Origin: Candidatus Latescibacterota bacterium
GTDB lineage: Bacteria; Latescibacterota; UBA2968
Assembly: GCA_965207885.1 (NCBI GenBank)
Contig: OZ242311.1
Location: 4,576,001-4,640,000 of the forward strand
DNA: 64,000 bases
Direction of reading: 5' to 3'
Made by a program: the position numbers and the translations under genes. This document shows, piece after piece, positions 2,723 to 18,474 of the stretch. How positions within the stretch are numbered: position 1 is the stretch's first letter; each line of letters starts with the position of its first letter. The notes under the pieces are model-generated. The model saw only the letters and a program-made list of their open reading frames with translations, was not told the DNA's origin and searched no databases.

Positions 2723-5113
2723 TCAAAATTGATAGCGGACGGTCGTGTCAAAGCTTCTGGGCGTGCCTCTAAACCCACCGATGCGACCGCCATAACCGCC
2801 TGGGAAATATTCTTTCCCTGTGAGGTTGTGCAAATTGACGGCGATTTTGAATCGGTCGTAGCGAATGAATATGCCACCGTTGACGACAAAGTAAGAAGGC
2901 AGGTTGTCGTCTGTTTGGAACGTCGTGCGCTCGCTGAGATAACTGCCGCCCAGGGCGAAACCGATTTGAGAAGCTGGAGAAAGTGGCATATCATAGCGAG
3001 ACCAGAATCCGATGGTGTTTTTTGGGTTATTTGGGTTCTTTTTTCCGACATTGTCCGGGTTGGTGTCTTTGGTAATTTCGGCTTTGAGGCTGCGCGCAAA
3101 ACTGCCGTGTACACTCCAGCGGTCGGTGATAATACCGGCCATGTCAAGTTCGAAACCCTGGCTTTGAATTTCGCCGACCTGAACTCTGCGATCTGGCATG
3201 TCTTCGGGCGGGTTTGGATCTCTGAGAATGACATTTTCTTTGGTGATGTGATAAAGCGCGAGGGTGGTATTAAAACGGTTGTCTAAGAATGACGATTTCG
3301 CGCCACCTTCTATTGTCCAGCTGTTTTCAGGATCAAAGGGGCCGCCATATCGGTCGGGGTCAAATGTGTAGCTGGAACGGACGGGTTCAAATCCCTGGCT
3401 ATAACTCAGATAGGTCGAGATTGACGGGATGAGCTTGAACACAGCACCGCCGCGCAAAGACCACTGAGAATCGCTGGCCCGGTTGTTCGATCCTTCTTCG
3501 GCTTTGTCTTCGAATGAGTCGTAGCGGGCACCTATCAGCACGTTGAGCTTATTACCGAGGGCGATCTGGTCTTGAAGATAAAAACCGAAGGCCGAGATGC
3601 GGTTGTTGAGGCGCGTGGTCAATTGGGAAATGCCCCGCGGAATATCTGCCCCGTAATAGGAATATTTGAGTGGGTTGTTTGCTTGCGCGAAAACGGGATT
3701 AAAGATATTGATATTGGGCACCGGCCCGCCCCGGCTGGCGTCTCGAGCGGTTGCAAAGCGGTAAAGACCTTCTGTGAGGGTGTATTCCACGCCCGAGAGT
3801 ACCGTGTGGTTGATTGATGCGGCGTTGATATCGTAGATCAAATTTGCGTTGACGGCTCGCTGCTGTTTTTCGCGATACTGATCTCGGAATTCGCGCAGCA
3901 TGGTTTCGCCGTCGGCGAGCAGGCCGCGGGGTTCGTGATATTCTTGCCGCCGTTGGTTGGTCAGGTAACTGGCCGAAACGTCAAATTTGAGGTGGTCTGA
4001 AAAGCGGTGGTCTGCGCGGAGGCGATAGACATAGGCTTCAATGCTGATAAAATCATCGGGTTCGTTGACGGTGTAGCTAAGTGGAAGCTCGACGAGTTCG
4101 TGGTTGAAAAAGGGGACGCCTCTATTGCGATGGCCTTTATTGAGTTCGTCAAACCATTCGCCGTTTATTGAAATAGATGTGCGGTCTGTAGGCAGCCATA
4201 TGAAACCGCCGTTGAAGGACGAGTAAATGAATTGTTCGTGTTGGCGGTATCCATCATCATTGGCATGGTTGACGTTGATTTTGTAGAGCAGTTTACCAAA
4301 ACCAGGGGTTACGGGTACAGGTCCTGTTGAAGAGAAGTTTGCCTGAGATTTTGAATAGGATCCGAGCGTAAGCTTGAGTTCGTTTTTTTGTCGCGCACTT
4401 GGTTGTTTGGTAATGACGTTAATAAATCCACCGGGTCGCGATTGCCCATAGAGCGCGCCAGCAGGACCTTTGACCACTTCGACGCGTTCTACGTCGTCTA
4501 AGCGCATTCGGTTGAAGAAGCCGTGTACCTGATTGAGACCGTTTTGCTTGACCGCGCCGTCTCCTGTGGTGCGAAAGCCGCGCATGTTAAAGTCGAGGTA
4601 TTCGCTGAAGGGATTGACACCACTGACGTTTTGCAGCACGTCAGTGAGATAGGTCAGCCCCTGGTCTTCGACGAGATCGCCATTGATGATTTGGACGGAC
4701 TGGGGCAAGTCGCGCAAAGCGGTGTTGGTGCGCGTTGCAGTGGTGCGGTCTGAGGCATACCCTTCTTCGACAACTGTGATTTCATTGAGGATGTATGGCG
4801 TGTCTTCAATGAGGGTGATTGCGATTTTGGGGACTTGCTTTGGGGTGACAGATATGGTTTGTTCAATGGTTTTATAACCGAGATAACTCGCGATCAAGAC
4901 ATGGTCTCCGTGCGGCACATTGGGAATCACAAAATACCCCTGGTTATCTGCCACAGCACCCAGGCGCGTGTTTTTGAGCACAATGCTCGCACCGGGAAGT
5001 GGATTATTTTTTTGATCTAAAACTTGTCCGCGAATAGTATTTGTTTGTGCGAGGACCGGTGTTGAATAGATCGCGAAAACAACGAGCAATAGTAACCGAT
5101 AAAAATTTGACAT
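2723..5113 (-). CDS. TonB-dependent siderophore receptor
   Basis: Start MSNFYRLL with GGAG SD; plug motifs PQSVQII and ERVEVVKGPAGALYG; C-terminal RYQF. Confidence 0.93.
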   Translation of the reverse strand: MSNFYRLLLLVVFAIYSTPVLAQTNTIRGQVLDQKNNPLPGASIVLKNTRLGAVADNQGYFVIPNVPHGDHVLIASYLGYKTIEQTISVTPKQVPKIAITLIEDTPYILNEITVVEEGYASDRTTATRTNTALRDLPQSVQIINGDLVEDQGLTYLTDVLQNVSGVNPFSEYLDFNMRGFRTTGDGAVKQNGLNQVHGFFNRMRLDDVERVEVVKGPAGALYGQSRPGGFINVITKQPSARQKNELKLTLGSYSKSQANFSSTGPVPVTPGFGKLLYKINVNHANDDGYRQHEQFIYSSFNGGFIWLPTDRTSISINGEWFDELNKGHRNRGVPFFNHELVELPLSYTVNEPDDFISIEAYVYRLRADHRFSDHLKFDVSASYLTNQRRQEYHEPRGLLADGETMLREFRDQYREKQQRAVNANLIYDINAASINHTVLSGVEYTLTEGLYRFATARDASRGGPVPNINIFNPVFAQANNPLKYSYYGADIPRGISQLTTRLNNRISAFGFYLQDQIALGNKLNVLIGARYDSFEDKAEEGSNNRASDSQWSLRGGAVFKLIPSISTYLSYSQGFEPVRSSYTFDPDRYGGPFDPENSWTIEGGAKSSFLDNRFNTTLALYHITKENVILRDPNPPEDMPDRRVQVGEIQSQGFELDMAGIITDRWSVHGSFARSLKAEITKDTNPDNVGKKNPNNPKNTIGFWSRYDMPLSPASQIGFALGGSYLSERTTFQTDDNLPSYFVVNGGIFIRYDRFKIAVNLHNLTGKEYFPGGYGGRIGGFRGTPRSFDTTVRYQF

Positions 5114-5182
5114 GTTGATTCTCCGCATTGATGAGATATTGGGGTTGAGAATTTTAAAAATCTGTACAACTCCATTTTCTTT

Positions 5183-5300
5183 TTGCATCTATGGTGCATA
5201 AATTTTATGTTTAAAACATGCTGCGCCTCCTTTGGGGTGTGGCTCTCTGCCATCGGTTTTCTGCTTTGACGGGCGATAACCGGTGGCATTTTTGTTTTTT
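5183..5300 (+). ncRNA. Candidate cis-antisense sRNA with own promoter and terminator in the TBDR leader
   Basis: TTGCAT-17-TATGTT (5183-5211); GU-rich hairpin 5221-5242; stem 5248-5258/5278-5288 followed by U-tract. The pairing works only on the + strand. Confidence 0.55.
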
Positions 5301-7919: not shown

Positions 7920-9161
7920 TTAGAATTGAAAACCGAGTGCAAAACTGGCGGTGTTTTCGCCATTGAAGTTGCCCGTGCCCACCCGGCGCATGGCATAGTC
8001 GCCTTTCAGGACGACGGCGTTGCCCATGGTGTAGTTGATGCCGAGCGTGTAAACGCGGCGTTGGAAACGCGGGTTGTCAAAAAAATTTTGTGGCATTTCG
8101 GCCATTGTGTCATAGCTATCAAATCGAAAGAACAGATGGCATTGATCCTCCTTATGCGAGGTGAAAAAGGGCATGATGTCGTAACCGGCTTCGGCGTAAA
8201 ACGCATACGCGGCACTGGCGACGGGCGTTCTCAAGACGTCGAGGTTGTTGGACAATGTGCGGTTGCGCTCGCTGACAATATCCGCATTTTGCAGGTTTCC
8301 GTAGAGGTACATGCCCTGTGCGCGGAAGCGGTTGTATCGCAGCACAGCGTGAATGTCAAAAATGGATACGTAGGCGTCCGTATCTTTCATGTCGGGTTTG
8401 GGGCGGTTGTCGGCACTGTTGCCGCGATAGCCCGATACGCCAAAGGTGAGGCCATCGACGAGGTGGTAGTCCAACCGACCCACAAGGGCCATGTTGGTTG
8501 CGCGGACTTCTTCAAAGCGCGTTTGATGCCCGCCCACTATCCAGTTTTGCGAATCGAAGCCCGTGGCGTCTAAGCCGTTGACGAGTTGGAGTTGATAGGT
8601 CAGGCGATTGGTGTGACCACTGATTTCAATACCGGTTTCGTGCCATATTGCCGGAATAACCGCGGTTTCCGATTCGGGGCGGCGGGTGCCAAAAAAGTCC
8701 GTGGGATGGTATTGCTCTGTGGTGAGACCCACCGCGACGTAGAAGTGGCCCAGGCGGATGTTGAAGGCGTCGCTAAATTCGCGTTTGATGTAGAGTTCTT
8801 CGAGGATGACTTCTCCACCTTTTTCCACTTCTGTTTCGTATTCGCCAAATTCCTCGTATTCGATTTCGAGGGCACCGCCCGTACCGCCGTGTTCGATTTC
8901 CACTTCGGTTTCCAGTTCGACACCGCGCAGCAGACGCAGTTCCATTTCGAGTGCCAAACGCGCAATATCTATGGTGGCGCGGCTATCTGGCGGCGAACCC
9001 GCTGGGCCGCTCTTCTGGTCGGGACCGTAATTGAAGTGGGAGTAGATGAGTTCACCGTATCCCGTGAATTTAATTTTGGGCGCTGACTTCTGGTCTTCGG
9101 CTATGATGCTTATGGGCAACGCGAGCGTTAGATAGATGCTAAATAAAAAAAGTCGGTTCAT
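7920..9161 (-). CDS. Outer-membrane beta-barrel porin (OprO/OprP-like)
   Basis: Signal peptide, EVEIEHGG motif, amphipathic strands, C-terminal F. Confidence 0.8.
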   Translation of the reverse strand: MNRLFLFSIYLTLALPISIIAEDQKSAPKIKFTGYGELIYSHFNYGPDQKSGPAGSPPDSRATIDIARLALEMELRLLRGVELETEVEIEHGGTGGALEIEYEEFGEYETEVEKGGEVILEELYIKREFSDAFNIRLGHFYVAVGLTTEQYHPTDFFGTRRPESETAVIPAIWHETGIEISGHTNRLTYQLQLVNGLDATGFDSQNWIVGGHQTRFEEVRATNMALVGRLDYHLVDGLTFGVSGYRGNSADNRPKPDMKDTDAYVSIFDIHAVLRYNRFRAQGMYLYGNLQNADIVSERNRTLSNNLDVLRTPVASAAYAFYAEAGYDIMPFFTSHKEDQCHLFFRFDSYDTMAEMPQNFFDNPRFQRRVYTLGINYTMGNAVVLKGDYAMRRVGTGNFNGENTASFALGFQF

Positions 9162-10557: not shown

Positions 10558-11676
10558 TTAGAAATACGATGCAATCGAAAAGAAGAGGCGTCCAATGCCA
10601 TCGCCTTTGTCGCCATTTGCTGGCGTTTTGTAGGTGGCGTTATAATCCAACTTGAAAGCCGTGTCTTCAACGGGACGGAAGTTCAAGCCAAAGGTGATCC
10701 CGTATTCCGAATCACCACTTACCGAGGTATCAAAATCGAGCCAGTCCCAGCGCACGATGGCTGTGAACACGGATTCTGATAAGAAATGATCGTGCCCAAA
10801 GTGAAAGTTGGTCTGTGCATAAGCACCGCGCTGGTCGCCATTAAATCCATCGGCGGTGGCCTGTCCGTATTCGCCCTGAAGTTCGATGGCTCCCTGTGTA
10901 AATAGCGCATCGAGACCGAAGATGGAGAGGCGGTTGTTGTCCGCATCGTCGTATTTGCCCGTGTGAAAAGAGGCGCCGAGGTCAATGCCCAGTCGCGGGC
11001 TGAAGCCGAACCGTCCGACGAGTGCTTTGTCGTTGTTGTTGTCCGTTTTTTGGCTGCCCCGTCCGCTTCGAATGCGGAGTTTACCGCCGGAGTTGACTTT
11101 TTCGTTGAACCCGTTGACGAGGTAGATTTCATAAGTTGCTACGGAGAGTTCAGAGGGATAAAAGGTGCCAAAGAAGCCCATTCCCGCCTCTGAGAGGGTG
11201 GATGGCATGATCTGACGGTTCACGGTGGGGCGTTCTGTCAGGTCGTTGAGCGGGCTATCGTGCAGGAGGTTAAAACGCCCGAGCGGGGAGAGTATGACAC
11301 CGCCCCGATAGTTGAAGGCTTCTTTAAAGGTGAAGTCCATGATGGCGAATTCGAGTTTGATTTCGCCATCGGTGTTGCTGCTGCCTTTGACGAGACCACC
11401 GTGCTCAAATTCGATTTCGCACGAAACGTGAATTCGGTCGGTGATTTCCGAAAAGATGAAGGGGATGAAACGGTGCTGGTCAAAGGTGCTGTCTTTTCCT
11501 TCTGTCCATTCAAATTCGTGGTCAATATATCCGCCGATAGCTACATTTCTGCCCATGCGTTTGATATAGGGTTTGTCGTATATGCTGCCGGGTAATTCGG
11601 GCCGTTTGTCTTCCTCGGCTATGGTGGGTAGTGCAAATGTCAGAGATAGAAACGAAACGAGTAGTTTGAAGCGCAT
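10558..11676 (-). CDS. Outer-membrane porin (OprO/OprP-like), first gene of iron/flavin operon
   Basis: MRFKLL start with AGGAGG; EIEFEHGG, GRFNLLH and ERP motifs; C-terminal YF. Confidence 0.82.
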   Translation of the reverse strand: MRFKLLVSFLSLTFALPTIAEEDKRPELPGSIYDKPYIKRMGRNVAIGGYIDHEFEWTEGKDSTFDQHRFIPFIFSEITDRIHVSCEIEFEHGGLVKGSSNTDGEIKLEFAIMDFTFKEAFNYRGGVILSPLGRFNLLHDSPLNDLTERPTVNRQIMPSTLSEAGMGFFGTFYPSELSVATYEIYLVNGFNEKVNSGGKLRIRSGRGSQKTDNNNDKALVGRFGFSPRLGIDLGASFHTGKYDDADNNRLSIFGLDALFTQGAIELQGEYGQATADGFNGDQRGAYAQTNFHFGHDHFLSESVFTAIVRWDWLDFDTSVSGDSEYGITFGLNFRPVEDTAFKLDYNATYKTPANGDKGDGIGRLFFSIASYF

Positions 11677-11717
11677 GCTTTTCCTCCTGAGTGAAACACA
11701 ATGCCATTCAAAGTGGG

Positions 11718-11831
11718 TTGACATGATGCACGGGAAACCCTACTTTGAATGTGAGTTGTGCTTTTGGTGTGACTCAGACCATCTTCCGCCGGGCTGGCAG
11801 GCTCTTGAAACGGGAGGTGGTCTTTTTGTTT
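11718..11831 (+). ncRNA. Candidate cis-antisense sRNA (~80 nt) with promoter and terminator in porin-operon leader
   Basis: TTGACA-17-TACTTT (11718-11746); hairpin 11752-11776 with UUUUG loop; 13-bp stem 11776-11788/11811-11823 then U-tract; GU pairs on + strand only. Confidence 0.62.
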
Positions 11832-11920
11832 GGCGGTCTATAAAAATGTTTTACTAATAAAACACTCGCCCAACAAATAAAACAAGTGTTGGGTTTATGT
11901 CAATATTTTTTTACTAATTT
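11821..11920 (-). promoter_or_regulatory. Conserved promoter/operator module, copy 1
   Basis: TTGACA at 11903-11898; CCCAACA-N11-TGTTGGG 11869-11893; TGTTTTA-N4-TAAAACA 11847-11864; near-identical to copies at 13141 and 18254. Confidence 0.8.
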
Positions 11921-11949
11921 AAATGAATGGGTGAACCCACCCGTTCACT

Positions 11950-12116
11950 AAAATCGGTCGGGCCACCAAACGTGTGGATGACCGACTGGCCTTATAGAGT
12001 AATGAAAAATCGGACGTGCCCTCATTTCCGGCAGCCTGAATTAGCTCTATTTACCCACTGCCATGAAAATGCTGTCCAGGGATTTTTGAACATTTTTGAA
12101 ATTGGCGGACACGTCC
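11950..12116 (-). ncRNA. Candidate structured RNA element A
   Basis: 10-bp closing stem GGACGUGUCC/GGGCACGUCC (12116-12107/12021-12012); downstream hairpin 11954-11985 followed by UUUU. Confidence 0.3.
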
Positions 12117-12190
12117 ATAGACGACTATAAATTTAATTGACAGTGCGATTAAAAAGCGCGATTAAAAAGTATGATAATGTATTGTAATAC

Positions 12191-12312
12191 CATTCACACA
12201 CCCTCACCGCTGGCGGCTTTGAGAACTATTATTTTGCCCAGCTACCACGAAAAGTGTAGGAGGCATCCCGGGACTTTGGAACTTAGCTTTGCAGGTGGCG
12301 GGTGTGTGAATG
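12191..12312 (+). ncRNA. Candidate structured RNA element B (long closing stem, internal hairpins)
   Basis: Perfect 13-bp inverted repeat cattcacacaccc/gggtgtgtgaatg extended by cacc/ggtg; promoter-like elements upstream. Confidence 0.42.
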
Positions 12313-12356
12313 AATAACTTTTTCACAATATACACTTATCTTCTGGAACTTCAGAG

Positions 12357-13070
12357 TCAATCATTCGCTGTCGATTCCCGGTTTTGCATCGCCACGAAGT
12401 GGCGTTCCACCCGGCCTGTCGCCAGCATCGTACCGATGAGCAGTAACCATAGAACAAAGGCAGGCCCACTGAAATGATGTATACCAACCGTCGCGTCTAA
12501 CCATATAAATTGCATGGCGATGCCGATAACCGCAGATGCGGGTGCAACATATCTGAGCTGACCGCCGACTTTCCACTGGTACCGCGCCGCGAGGATGAGC
12601 GCCAATCCAGCTGCCGAGAAACCGATTTTGCCGGTGAACCATCGAAGGTATTCGGTCGTCTCTGCCGTGGCGGTCACTTCTGGTGCAATGGCAACAAGCG
12701 CGATTGTACACACCCCGGAAATGATCGTAAAAAGCCCAGACACAGCGAACAGCACCGGTACCAGAGGTGTACCCAGTCGCGCCTTGATAATCCAGGTTCT
12801 CGACAAAAACCACGCACCTGCAACCAGCGCAGCACCCGAGATCAGCCTGCCAGCACCTCCCGTAGCGTAAAGGCCACCACTCTCTGAGATCGCGACGAGC
12901 GATTCAGCAAACGTGGGCTGATCCGCGTCGGCGGCGACTCGTCCAATAACGGCAACACCTGTTGCTAATGCAGTCAATATCAGAGACAGCCCACCTTTAC
13001 GGGCGTTGGAATCCTGTGGCCGATCGACTGTCGCCCCGGTCGAAGTTGATGGATGCGATGATTCTTTCAT
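12357..13070 (-). CDS. Multi-pass membrane protein (DUF4386-like)
   Basis: ATG 13070 with AGGAGGAG SD; about 6 hydrophobic helices; family assignment from memory. Confidence 0.65.
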   Translation of the reverse strand: MKESSHPSTSTGATVDRPQDSNARKGGLSLILTALATGVAVIGRVAADADQPTFAESLVAISESGGLYATGGAGRLISGAALVAGAWFLSRTWIIKARLGTPLVPVLFAVSGLFTIISGVCTIALVAIAPEVTATAETTEYLRWFTGKIGFSAAGLALILAARYQWKVGGQLRYVAPASAVIGIAMQFIWLDATVGIHHFSGPAFVLWLLLIGTMLATGRVERHFVAMQNRESTAND

Positions 13071-13120
13071 AATGATACTCCTCCTGTTGGATTCTGTAAA
13101 AAGTGGCCAAAAAAGTCTTA

Positions 13121-13240
13121 AAGTTTGGTTTGGTAGCAGTCTTTTTTGTTTTGTGATATATAAAAATGTTTTATTAATAAAACAATCATCCAATAAATAA
13201 AACAAATGTTGGGCTTATGTCAATATTTTTTTAATAATTT
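13121..13240 (-). promoter_or_regulatory. Conserved promoter/operator module, copy 2
   Basis: TTGACA 13223-13218; perfect 18-bp palindrome TGTTTTATTAATAAAACA 13167-13184; degenerate TCCAATA-N11-TGTTGGG. Confidence 0.8.
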
Positions 13241-13249
13241 AGGGATAAA

Positions 13250-15539: not shown

Positions 15540-17864
15540 TTAAAATCCGTAGCCGATTGTCCAGATGGCTTCGAAAGGTCTGCCGGGGTGTACGCTACGG
15601 CCCGTGCCGCCCCACGCAGAGCTCACGTATTTTTCATTCGTGAGGTTGTGCAACACCATGTCAAAGCGCCAGCCGTTGCGTGAATAATACACGCTGGCAT
15701 TGAGCAATGTGTGCGGATCTATGCTGATGGTATTGTCGGTAGTAACCCATCGTTTGCCGACGTAATTGACACCTGCACCCAGACCCAGACCGCGCCACGC
15801 ACCTTCTGGTAATTCATAGGTAAGCCAGAGGTCGGCTGTGACTTCGGGTATCCTGATAAAGGCATTGTCTTTCAGGTCCGTATTGTCTTCGAGTACTTTT
15901 GTGCGAACAAAACCCAGCCCGGCAATGGCTTGCAAGCCCGGCGCAAGATCGCCGTTGAGTTCGAGTTCAAGGCCCCGGCTTCGCAGTTTGCCACTGGCAA
16001 TGGATGCACCAAAGGGGAATGCGGGGTCATTGGGGTCGGCTGTAGCTACATTGACTTTGGTCACCTGAAAAGCAGATGCTGAAACCTGGAACCGACTGTC
16101 CTCGGGTTGGATGCGCATGCCCATTTCCAACCCTTCGCCCACTTCTGGCTCTAACGGGTCGCCGTTGATGTCTGCGCTAAAGCTCGGGACGAAGGATTCT
16201 GAGTAGTTGCCGTATAGACTCACTTGCTCGCTTGCGTGCCAGACCAGACCCGCCTGTGGTGTCCAGGCTTTGTCTTTTTGGTCTGAAATCCTGCTATTGG
16301 CATAGTCATAACCCTCGTTAGTAACATAGTCATAACGCAGTCCGCCGCTCAGGATCAAGTCGTCTGTGATGGAGAAGTGATCTTGAAAGAAAACACCTGC
16401 CGCGTCAATTCTGTTATCTCCGGTAAAGTTGGGGTTCCAGGGTAGTTGGGATTCTGCAAGCGGCATTTCACTGTAGTCGGGATTTAGAAAGTTGATAATT
16501 GAAGCCTGGGAGGGATCATAGCCTGTTGCATACGCCGCTTTCTGTCGGCGTAAGTCCACGCCTAAGAGGAATCGGTTGGCATTGGAGCCGAGTTTGACAT
16601 CGCCTGCTAAGGTAAATTGGGCGGCCAATTGTCGGTTGTCTTGCTTTTGGCGCGCCGGAAAACGCGTGTAGTTTCCGGTTGATTCATCAAAAAAAGCTGG
16701 CAACCACAGGGAGCTAAATTCGTAGTTCGTGTCGAGGTATCGGAAGCGGTTTCCGACTGCCCAGTTGTCGCTGAGGAAGTGCTCAAAATCGTGACCAACA
16801 ATGAATTGGTTGCGCTCCAGTGTGTCTTGTGGGTGGTTGTTCACGCGTTCGACGGGTGCAACAAGCTCGCCGTTGTTGTTGATGGCTGTGCCAAAATCGG
16901 CAGGGCCTTTGTCACGAGTGACTTCCAAAAATAAGGTGAGTTTGGTGCGTTCGCTCATTCTCCAGCGCAGACTTGGCCCAAAGAAAAGACGACTTTTCTT
17001 TGTGTCGTAATTGCGCCAGTGATCGCCATAACTGTAAAGGCCTGGCAGGCGGTAGGTCACATTATCGGTTTGGCCGACTGGTCCGCTTAAGTCAATGCGC
17101 GTTTCTGCAGAGCCAAAAGACCCGCCTTGCAGTTCGATGCGCCTGAAGGGTTCGACGGTAGGACGCTTGCTGACCATGTTGATGAGGCCACCCGGGTCAC
17201 TCTGACCGTATTGAATGCTGTCGGGCCCCTTTAATACTTCGGTGGATTCCTGACCGAATGTTTCGGGGTCCATAGCACCGCCAAAATTATCCACGTTGAA
17301 GCCGTCGCGCAACAATGGGGCATCAAAGCCGCGAACGAGGAATGAGTGCTCCCGTCCATCTCCAGGGCCACCAAAAGCGACGTTTGGTGCCAGGGTGACT
17401 ATTTCTTCAAGTCCCTGTGGGCGTATTTTTTGTACTTCATCTTCGCTGAAGACCCGGATATTTCGCGGCACATCTTCAAGTGCGACTGGTCCGCGCAAGA
17501 CAGAGGGTTTTTCGTTTACGGCAAGCACCTCAATGCGCTTTAAGGCAAATGCAGATGCCAACAGCGTTGCACGGATTTCGGCAATTTGACCATTTTGCAC
17601 AGTAACGTCCTGCTTAAAAACGCGATACCCGACGTGCGAAATAACCAGTTCGTAGGTGCCCACCGGCACGTTTGTCAGCGTAAACGCACCTTTGTTATCG
17701 GTATATGCGCCCAGCTTTGTTTCACTAAGCCCTACGTTTACAAATTCGAGCGGTGCGCCCAAAGAATCTTCAACAACGCCTTTAATTGTGCCCACCTGTG
17801 CATCGGCGCGCGACGTGACCACAAAACAGGCAATCAGCAACAAAATCGTTCTTAAATGCTTCAT
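15540..17864 (-). CDS. TonB-dependent siderophore receptor
   Basis: Signal peptide, carboxypeptidase-reg-like domain, EVLKGPDSIQYGQSDPGG, C-terminal YGF; AGGAG SD. Confidence 0.93.
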   Translation of the reverse strand: MKHLRTILLLIACFVVTSRADAQVGTIKGVVEDSLGAPLEFVNVGLSETKLGAYTDNKGAFTLTNVPVGTYELVISHVGYRVFKQDVTVQNGQIAEIRATLLASAFALKRIEVLAVNEKPSVLRGPVALEDVPRNIRVFSEDEVQKIRPQGLEEIVTLAPNVAFGGPGDGREHSFLVRGFDAPLLRDGFNVDNFGGAMDPETFGQESTEVLKGPDSIQYGQSDPGGLINMVSKRPTVEPFRRIELQGGSFGSAETRIDLSGPVGQTDNVTYRLPGLYSYGDHWRNYDTKKSRLFFGPSLRWRMSERTKLTLFLEVTRDKGPADFGTAINNNGELVAPVERVNNHPQDTLERNQFIVGHDFEHFLSDNWAVGNRFRYLDTNYEFSSLWLPAFFDESTGNYTRFPARQKQDNRQLAAQFTLAGDVKLGSNANRFLLGVDLRRQKAAYATGYDPSQASIINFLNPDYSEMPLAESQLPWNPNFTGDNRIDAAGVFFQDHFSITDDLILSGGLRYDYVTNEGYDYANSRISDQKDKAWTPQAGLVWHASEQVSLYGNYSESFVPSFSADINGDPLEPEVGEGLEMGMRIQPEDSRFQVSASAFQVTKVNVATADPNDPAFPFGASIASGKLRSRGLELELNGDLAPGLQAIAGLGFVRTKVLEDNTDLKDNAFIRIPEVTADLWLTYELPEGAWRGLGLGAGVNYVGKRWVTTDNTISIDPHTLLNASVYYSRNGWRFDMVLHNLTNEKYVSSAWGGTGRSVHPGRPFEAIWTIGYGF

Positions 17865-18052: not shown

Positions 18053-18137
18053 CTATAGGGGCTTAAGTTCCCTATGGTTGCTACATCCGGGTGATCGGTT
18101 GCGGACCGCCAAGTCAAAACCGATTACCCATTTTTTA
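18053..18137 (+). ncRNA. Candidate antisense two-hairpin element in TBDR leader
   Basis: Hairpin 18053-18077; 12-bp stem 18089-18100/18118-18129 then ATTTTTT; CATAAT at 18046-18051 but no good -35. Confidence 0.4.
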
Positions 18138-18234
18138 TACCTTAATATTGCAAGCGCAACTGCACACCACTTTGACCGCGAGCGGAGTTAATCCATCATG
18201 TCTCTTGATGGTCTCGAGAAAAAGAAAGTCCTGA

Positions 18235-18340
18235 AGTTTGGTTTGGTAGCAGTCTTTTTTGTTTTGTGGTCTATAAAATTGTTTTATTAGCAAAACACTC
18301 GCCCAACAAATAAAACAAATGTTGGGTATATGTCAACAAG
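18235..18340 (-). promoter_or_regulatory. Conserved promoter/operator module, copy 3
   Basis: TTGACA 18336-18331; CCCAACA-N11-TGTTGGG 18302-18326; TGTTTT-N6-AAAACA 18280-18297. Confidence 0.8.
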
Positions 18341-18474
18341 TTTTTTATTTTTTTCTCAAATTATGATAAGTCAGATTAATTTAGCTTTGGCGATTAACTG
18401 AAAAGGGTTGAATTTTTGGGACAAGTACCTATTATAGCGCAGTGTTTTTTCGATCTCAATGCGAGGAGAGTTAA

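Follow-up and report, generated by a model that had tools for sequence, protein, structure and literature searches.

A conserved cis-antisense small RNA gene in the 5' leader of a predicted iron-regulated operon of Latescibacterota

The locus and its features

The stretch of DNA analysed here (the window) comprises 64,000 nucleotides (nt) from the genome of a Candidatus Latescibacterota bacterium, a single contig (OZ242311.1) of 6.23 Mb with a G+C content of 51%. Within it, the predicted 5' leader of an operon transcribed from the minus strand contains, on the plus strand, a gene for a small RNA (sRNA) that we conclude is a real cis-antisense sRNA (Table 1). The locus is flanked on both sides by minus-strand genes. 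Those of the operon code, in order, for an outer-membrane-like protein of 372 residues, an FMN_bind protein, a PepSY_TM/BNR protein, a BBP2 porin, an imelysin, a di-haem oxidoreductase and a TonB-dependent receptor. Strong ribosome-binding sites of the AGGAGG kind that precedes the first of these genes are used in the host genome.

Table 1. Features of the sRNA locus and of two related cassettes, in window positions (TSS, transcription start site)
Feature	Position	Strand	Details
sRNA -35 hexamer TTGACA	11718..11723	+	kept in homologues; fits the tRNA-promoter consensus of the genome
sRNA -10 hexamer TACTTT	11741..11746	+	17 nt after the -35
Predicted sRNA, ~79 nt	11753..11831	+	start inferred 7-8 nt past the -10; end in the U-tract
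Hairpin 1	11753..11775	+	10 bp, 5 of them G-U; at the predicted sRNA 5' end
Hairpin 2, intrinsic terminator	11776..11823	+	13-bp outer stem (2 G-U) and small apical stem-loop
Apical motif GGGCUGGCAGGCUC of hairpin 2	11791..11804	+	near-invariant while the stem below covaries
U-tract UUUUGUUU of the terminator	11824..11831	+	
Inverted repeat enclosing the sRNA promoter	11696..11760	.	core 11705-11718 with 11737-11751; extended arms 11696-11719 and 11736-11760
18-bp palindromic operator TGTTTTACTAATAAAACA	11847..11864	.	putative, from site distribution
Operon mRNA promoter (predicted)	11874..11903	-	TTGACA 11903-11898, 18-nt spacer, TATTTG 11879-11874; TSS ~11867
Shine-Dalgarno and start codon of the first operon gene	11674..11688	-	AGGAGG 11688-11683; ATG 11676-11674
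First operon gene, 372 aa	10558..11676	-	signal-peptide-like N-terminus; without Pfam or NCBIfam family
Second cassette ('sRNA-1')	5183..5300	+	TTGCAT 5183-5188, 17 nt, TATGTT 5206-5211; hairpin 5220-5243; terminator 5248-5288 and T-run
Third terminator-like hairpin	18089..18138	+	12 bp (18089-18129, 1 G-U) and T-run; within the leader of gene 15540-17864 (TonB-dependent receptor)

The element is an independent plus-strand RNA gene that has both a promoter and a terminator to itself; its TSS is predicted near 11752-11754, and its 3' end is likewise predicted. Hairpin 1, to which RNAfold gives a UUU loop, is unable to form on the minus strand. The terminator ends about 15 bp short of the palindromic operator, and the promoters of the sRNA and of the operon mRNA face each other at a distance of about 114 bp. 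Seen from the minus strand, the bases of the U-tract are the A-rich leader start common to three operator-bearing promoters. The plus-strand segment folds at -31.7 kcal/mol (z -2.15; 6 of 200 shuffles equal it) and the same segment of the minus strand at -17.2 kcal/mol (z -0.96; 32 of 200 shuffles equal it). A first-pass annotation of the window, made from the sequence alone, had placed the promoter, the hairpins, the 13-bp terminator and the inverted repeat within one base of these positions, and the UUUUG loop that it reported is that of the same hairpin 1 drawn with one pair fewer. Its proposal of an antisense RNA gene inside the leader, with a promoter and terminator of its own, is supported by the comparative evidence below.

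That annotation had also called the antisense layer possibly undescribed. A scan of the whole window against Rfam at the gathering score returned only a tRNA, while a search of 11500-12400 on both strands with E-values up to 10 gave only spurious matches. Among the latter, a Trp_leader match at 11876-11974 reaches 24 bits against a cut-off of 41 and lies within the promoter region, and we reject it as a chance match. We likewise reject a coding role: the minus strand of the leader contains no credible small open reading frame, and a 32-codon plus-strand frame over the sRNA is broken in relatives by 1-nt indels. No small toxin reading frame overlapped by the sRNA, as in a type I toxin-antitoxin locus, was found in the leader.

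Conservation and strand-specific structure of the sRNA

The relatives of the host genome are metagenome-assembled genomes titled Candidatus Latescibacterota. Using BLAST we recovered the entire leader, with an identity of 85-94%, from a further 11 genomes in the genus of the host. As the first-pass annotation had advised, we then searched relatives with a covariance model (CM), here built from 12 homologous sequences and run against 151 sampled genomes of the phylum. It recovered one copy of the sRNA per genome in 15 of the 151, all of them in a single family, f1, and distributed over three genera (10 of 19 genomes in g1, the single genome in g4 and all three in g9), and none in the other 13 sampled families. 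One further g1 genome, G004, was found by BLAST to have the sRNA.

For the pair statistics we used 16 homologues from the three genera in a CM alignment, which yields 423 cells. Of these, 98.8% are paired on the plus strand (301 Watson-Crick, 117 G-U, no A-C and 5 other combinations) and 71.2% on the minus strand. Eight pairs are changed on both sides, seven of them in the terminator stem, which thus has double changes across the three genera in 7 of its 12 modelled pairs. Hairpin 1 is paired in 100% of its cells, with changes that mostly turn G-U into G-C or A-U. None of 500 shuffles reaches any of the measures, and in slid controls 35-45% of the cells are paired. A helix is symmetric between the two strands except for its wobble pairs. 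We accordingly assign the conserved structure to the plus-strand RNA because of the split between G-U and A-C, the changes from G-U to G-C or A-U, the T-run and the promoter.

The structure was checked in two further ways. Single-sequence folds of four distant homologues show the same two hairpins with z-scores of -4.2 to -5.4, and none of 200 shuffles folds as well. From a structure-blind MAFFT alignment of 10 sequences, RNAalifold recovers hairpin 1, with three pairs doubly changed, and the apical stem of hairpin 2. The promoter is conserved as well: among the 16 homologues the -35 hexamer is TTGACA in 13 and TTGACT in three, the -10 hexamer is TACTTT in nine, TATTAT in three, TAATTT in two, and TACCTT and TATTTT in one each, and the two are separated by 17 nt in all 16, with a spacer whose sequence is free to differ, above all between genera.

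Of the 16 homologues, 15 have the inverted repeat that encloses this promoter in the corresponding position, with a sequence that differs by genus. Its cells comprise 261 Watson-Crick pairs, 11 G-U pairs in the sRNA sense, nine in the mRNA sense and 21 others, and with 11 wobble pairs against nine no strand can be called for it. Since only the mRNA would hold both arms, it is probably a hairpin of the mRNA leader that has the antisense promoter as its loop. The whole leader, folded on the minus strand, has a z-score of -3.38.

A promoter consensus for the host genome

The sequence TTGACA-17-TAnnTT occurs within 120 nt upstream of 16 of the 47 tRNA genes. Genome-wide, TTGACA-N17-TAnnTT has 151 sites at the spacer of 17 nt as against 8-28 at spacers of 14-20 nt, and permuted -35 words have 3-13 sites, amounting to an approximately tenfold enrichment. 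This is the housekeeping promoter consensus of this Latescibacterota genome. In view of the enrichment, a match to it is therefore very probably a real promoter, and the sRNA is most likely transcribed by the housekeeping sigma factor. No copy of the regulon palindrome described below was found at the sRNA promoter (11700-11760).

The first-pass annotation had drawn attention to a likeness between the promoters of the sRNA and of sucA that extends into the first six bases of the spacer. This is true of the host genome, where both promoters contain the 12-mer TTGACATGATGC, which has four copies in the genome, two of them in apparently coding stretches. Across 12 same-genus homologues, though, these six bases are TGATGC in four, TGGTGC in four, TGAACC in two and otherwise in the remaining two; the identity to the sucA spacer is therefore not conserved, and the likeness appears to be that of a shared consensus and nothing beyond it.

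Combining the strict promoter with a strong hairpin and T-run within less than 200 nt retrieves 25 units from the genome; nine are tRNA genes, and the sRNA is among the rest. Two short units of promoter and terminator outside the window, at genome positions 1042347 and 1144773 on the minus strand, have near-identical starts (…ctcaagtt.tc.gcttgagata…) and may be two copies of another sRNA family. Further orphan units of promoter and terminator lie at genome positions 405418, 3694583 and 5554016.

Linkage of the sRNA to the operon leader

Orthologues of the first operon gene co-occur with the sRNA. Besides the host, 18 genomes of the family have such an orthologue and 14 of them have the sRNA; in loci fetched by way of this gene the sRNA is always antisense and lies 70-170 nt upstream of the start codon. 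None of the nine g1 genomes without the first gene and that leader has the sRNA. In G004 (L012 1578-2990) the first three operon genes are missing and the sRNA-bearing leader stands directly before the porin gene, which is 94% identical to window 7920-9161. The cassette has here stayed with its leader, as a cis element should.

The operon promoter and a putative iron regulon

A promoter-operator block of about 90 nt is found at 11823-11921, 13143-13241 and 18256-18345, each time upstream of a minus-strand gene. Read on the minus strand it consists of TTGACA, 18 nt, a -10-like TATTTG, 9 nt and the 18-bp palindrome TGTTTTAYTARYAAAACA. When up to two mismatches are allowed the palindrome has four sites in the genome, namely 11847, 13167 and 18280 in the window, and genome position 3342952. 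The last of these has the same geometry and precedes a gene for a DtxR-like repressor (genome 3342397-3342918), followed by feoA and feoB. The DtxR-like protein matches Fe_dep_repr_C with 39 bits, and its N-terminal domain scores 25.5 bits, just below the cut-off of 26. Given the gene content and the distribution of the sites, we consider it probable that the palindrome is an operator to which an iron-dependent repressor binds and that the operon is under iron control. Taken together, the four sites suggest a compact iron regulon whose repressor is autoregulated. The iron label that the first-pass annotation had given to the operon is thus supported by these four sites, the fourth in particular. 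The host genome also has one Fur-family gene, distant from the locus.

From this promoter, which we call with moderate confidence because its -10 differs in some relatives, the 5' untranslated region (UTR) of the operon mRNA is predicted to be about 190 nt long, with the sRNA fully complementary to approximately +36 to +115. The leaders of the other two operator-bearing promoters (13085-13160 and 18200-18262) share a further stretch (…AAGTTTGGTTTGGTAGCAGTCTTTTTTGTTTTGTG on the plus strand) in which no hairpin is apparent. Read as mRNA, this stretch gives a 5' leader rich in CA and in A.

Six RNA runs contain 6-25% of the sampled words. Four RNA-library runs from one study yielded unstranded contigs over 11520-11911, with a low depth of 2-8 and 95-99% alike, spanning 11520-11827, 11613-11854 and 11680-11911 with no common ends. 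In all four runs T11762 is replaced by C, which converts a U-G pair of hairpin 1 to C-G.

Interpretation of the antisense arrangement

On balance we favor, as the best explanation of the whole, a cis-antisense sRNA that dampens expression of the iron operon by pairing with the leader of its mRNA and thereby imposes a threshold. We infer the sign and mechanism of this regulation, as well as the overlap of the two transcripts. The sRNA promoter would be constitutive, and whatever leader is transcribed during binding of the DtxR-type repressor would be met by the sRNA and pair with it. The resulting perfect duplex of about 80 nt would be cut by RNase III, which is the obvious candidate and is encoded in the host genome, or otherwise be inactivated. 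The operon would then be on only when the synthesis of mRNA exceeds the supply of sRNA, which would make the sRNA a threshold or noise filter, and strong transcription of the mRNA would in turn run over and silence the sRNA promoter, sharpening the switch. Such a logic is reported for MtlS (PMC6597380) and for antisense control of iron genes (PMC2758717, PMC5524678), and it fits the DonS-type sRNAs (PMC7366714).

Several observations weigh against this proposal. Its weakest link is the overlap between sRNA and mRNA: the mRNA TSS is uncertain, and an mRNA that began downstream of 11753 would not overlap the sRNA. The -10 of the mRNA promoter reads TGCTTG, TGTTTG or TGTTTA in some relatives, without the A at position 2. 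The unstranded RNA contigs, one of which crosses the predicted mRNA promoter, may include DNA and are compatible with the presence as well as the absence of the sRNA. About 60 nt of leader separate the pairing region from the Shine-Dalgarno sequence downstream of it, so that pairing would not block translation directly. The sRNA also seems dispensable, as four family genomes (in g2, g3 and g5) have the first operon gene without a detectable sRNA. As regards the structure, the CM alignment is fitted to the model, and the MAFFT alignment of 10 sequences loses the long stem 2 through indels in the distant sequences. Finally, the conserved apical motif GGGCUGGCAGGCU is unneeded for pairing in cis and hints at another partner; its conservation points to a first-contact loop, a protein-binding site or a target in trans.

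This last point is what favors the strongest of the alternatives, which we nevertheless consider unlikely: that the sRNA acts mainly in trans, like RyhB, PrrF or NrrF, with the apical motif GGGCUGGCAGGCU as its seed and the leader only as the site that encodes it. The motif is near-invariant amid covarying stems, which perfect pairing in cis would not require. Sites complementary to it with up to two mismatches, however, number 54 as compared with a mean of 71 for 20 shuffled motifs and are thus not enriched, and a simple scan, which is not a full target prediction, revealed no obvious complementary site near a start codon. Moreover, the sRNA is strictly tied to one leader, its promoter has no copy of the regulon operator, none of the iron-sRNA families of Rfam matches it, and a search of the host genome for Hfq did not find this protein.

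Somewhat less probable is the possibility that convergent transcription itself is what acts, either by interference or as an insulator that halts antisense polymerases before the operator, the RNA product being functionless. The facing promoters and the end of the terminator 15 bp before the operator are compatible with this, and levels of MtlS are set by transcriptional interference (PMC6597380). Yet hairpin 1, which is unneeded for termination, is paired in all its cells and on the plus strand only, which argues for selection on the RNA molecule itself.

We regard as improbable that the sRNA activates or stabilizes the mRNA, for instance by directing a cleavage after which the mRNA begins with a stable hairpin. 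In the logic known from GadY, sRNA-directed processing stabilizes the mRNA. The inverted repeat is predicted to give the leader a long hairpin immediately 3' of the segment that pairs with the sRNA, and this hairpin might serve as a cap after processing. The analogues at uptake genes found here in the literature, however, are repressors.

It is very improbable that the structure belongs to the minus-strand mRNA as a riboswitch, leader structure or protein-binding site, with the plus-strand signals as an accidental mirror image. The 85-94% identity of the leader within the genus and the z-score of its minus-strand fold would be in keeping with this, but the 117 G-U pairs against no A-C pair are not: the hairpins lose 28% of their pairs on the minus strand, where the segment folds no better than shuffles, it is the plus strand that has the T-run and the promoter hexamers, and Rfam is without a match on either strand. 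The idea that these are chance promoter- and terminator-like signals giving rise to spurious antisense transcription only is scarcely tenable: antisense transcription is often noise, a caveat quoted in the discussion of PMC7366714, but noise is at odds with conservation in three genera with covariation, a fixed spacing of the hexamers and a strand-specific structure.

The first-pass annotation had further envisaged attenuation as the mode of action. This version is not supported: no terminator-like structure that pairing of the sRNA would induce was found in the leader, and in the genus g9 the leader hairpin is followed by a U-poor stretch.

Related cassettes in the gene cluster

The same annotation had reported the architecture of the sRNA gene, with different sequences, at 5183 and 18053, of which the former fully bears comparison. 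The cassette at 5183, between the genes for the di-haem oxidoreductase and the TonB-dependent receptor, has a promoter, two hairpins and a terminator and is conserved in 10 other genomes. Its promoter consists of TTGCAT, or TTGGAC in relatives, 17 nt of variable spacer, and TATGTT or TATTTT. Its hairpin is rich in G-U, and the cells from 10 distinct sequences comprise 202 Watson-Crick pairs, 39 G-U, one A-C and one other. We place the start of the nearby TonB-dependent receptor gene at the ATG at 5111, not at 5188. In four relatives (L101-L104) the place of this cassette (window ~5150-5300) is taken by the 3' end of a plus-strand gene with its own terminator, the C-terminus of whose product looks ferritin-like by eye. 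At 18053, what stands is the 12-bp terminator: no consensus promoter was found there in the host genome, and there is one orthologous stretch only.

A third type of cassette was recognized in relatives. It comprises TTGACG-17-TATATT, two hairpins and a terminator of the form GGGTGATCGGTG...ACCGATCGCCC, and eight relatives (L079, L082, L083, L084, L085, L086, L088 and L014) have it directly upstream of the porin gene, at a distance of about 2.6 kb below the locus of the sRNA. In the relatives G013 and G015 it directly adjoins the operator element. The host genome, where 16 nt separate 9161 from 9178, is without a cassette at this place and has the paralogous terminator at 18089-18138. Scored with model R1, the other cassette types obtain 14-24 bits, much of it from the shared tail of the mRNA promoter element. 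The layout of gene start, antisense promoter, sRNA, terminator, operator and mRNA promoter is therefore a recurring module of the gene cluster.

As a tentative extension, which we think doubtful when all of its parts are taken jointly, one might envisage for Latescibacterota of this family a small DtxR-type iron regulon under two stacked layers of control, namely shared operators and modular, possibly paralogous antisense cassettes of three types, situated in leaders and intercistronic spacers of the same gene cluster. A cassette and the mRNA promoter convergent to it would then exclude each other's activity and so make up a switch. The conserved excess of G-U pairs would be a selected design that keeps the sRNA folded and nuclease-resistant but leaves the mirror-image segment of the mRNA open and accessible, and the site of first contact, in the manner of a kissing loop, would be the invariant apical loop.

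Significance and comparison with known systems

The locus represents a well-delimited sRNA family in a phylum without cultures, with its promoter, structure and predicted target obtained from comparative data alone. The strand-specific G-U pairs provide a clean example of how a conserved structure can be assigned to one strand of an antisense pair, and the analysis also yielded a housekeeping promoter consensus and a compact iron regulon with a putative operator. A search of the full-text literature found no report of a regulatory RNA for Latescibacterota. The sRNA constitutes a new RNA family, from a phylum that is uncultured, and a new member of a kind of control already known on chromosomes. 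The first-pass annotation had considered an antisense layer of this kind typical of plasmids, phages and type I toxin-antitoxin loci; that view needs revision, as chromosomal cis-antisense sRNAs on uptake genes have been published (PMC7366714, PMC6597380). If the recurring cassettes act as proposed, RNA-level thresholding of outer-membrane uptake, known from the glycan loci of Bacteroides, extends to metal uptake elsewhere in the Fibrobacteres-Chlorobi-Bacteroidetes (FCB) superphylum.

The DonS-type sRNAs of Bacteroides are cis-encoded, 78-128 nt in length, and situated at susC-type uptake genes (PMC7366714). Like them, the sRNA described here is short, cis-encoded, located at the 5' end of outer-membrane uptake genes, recurrent at several loci and from the FCB superphylum, and a negative action on the locus is likewise proposed, here by inference. 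It differs in that its predicted target is an iron regulon with a DtxR-type operator and not a glycan locus, and in that its promoter is TTGACA-17-TAnnTT and not of the Bacteroides type. The neighboring gene here encodes the 372-residue protein without a family, and only the cassette at 5183 precedes a gene for a TonB-dependent receptor; the comparison with DonS is one of descriptions only.

MtlS of Vibrio cholerae represses the transporter gene mtlA post-transcriptionally, and its level is inverse to the transcription of its target (PMC6597380). It too is a short cis-antisense sRNA with a promoter that faces the promoter of the target. The MtlS promoter, however, lies inside the mtlA reading frame, whereas the sRNA gene described here is confined to the 5' UTR, at a distance of about 60 nt from the ribosome-binding site. 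In sequence and in taxon the two RNAs are unrelated.

RNA-alpha, an antisense RNA from the plasmid pJM1 of Vibrio anguillarum, has a length of several hundred nucleotides and lies opposite coding sequence. It provides a second negative layer, beside a metal repressor, on fatA/fatB (PMC5524678). Unlike the plasmid-borne RNA-alpha, whose synthesis needs Fur, the sRNA reported here is short, chromosomal and antisense to a 5' UTR, and shows no operator at its promoter. In Synechocystis the chromosomal cis-antisense RNA IsrR determines how far the iron-stress mRNA isiA accumulates (PMC2758717). It differs from the present sRNA in being 177 nt long and located inside the isiA coding region, and its target encodes not an uptake component but an antenna protein that binds chlorophyll and builds up when iron is limiting.

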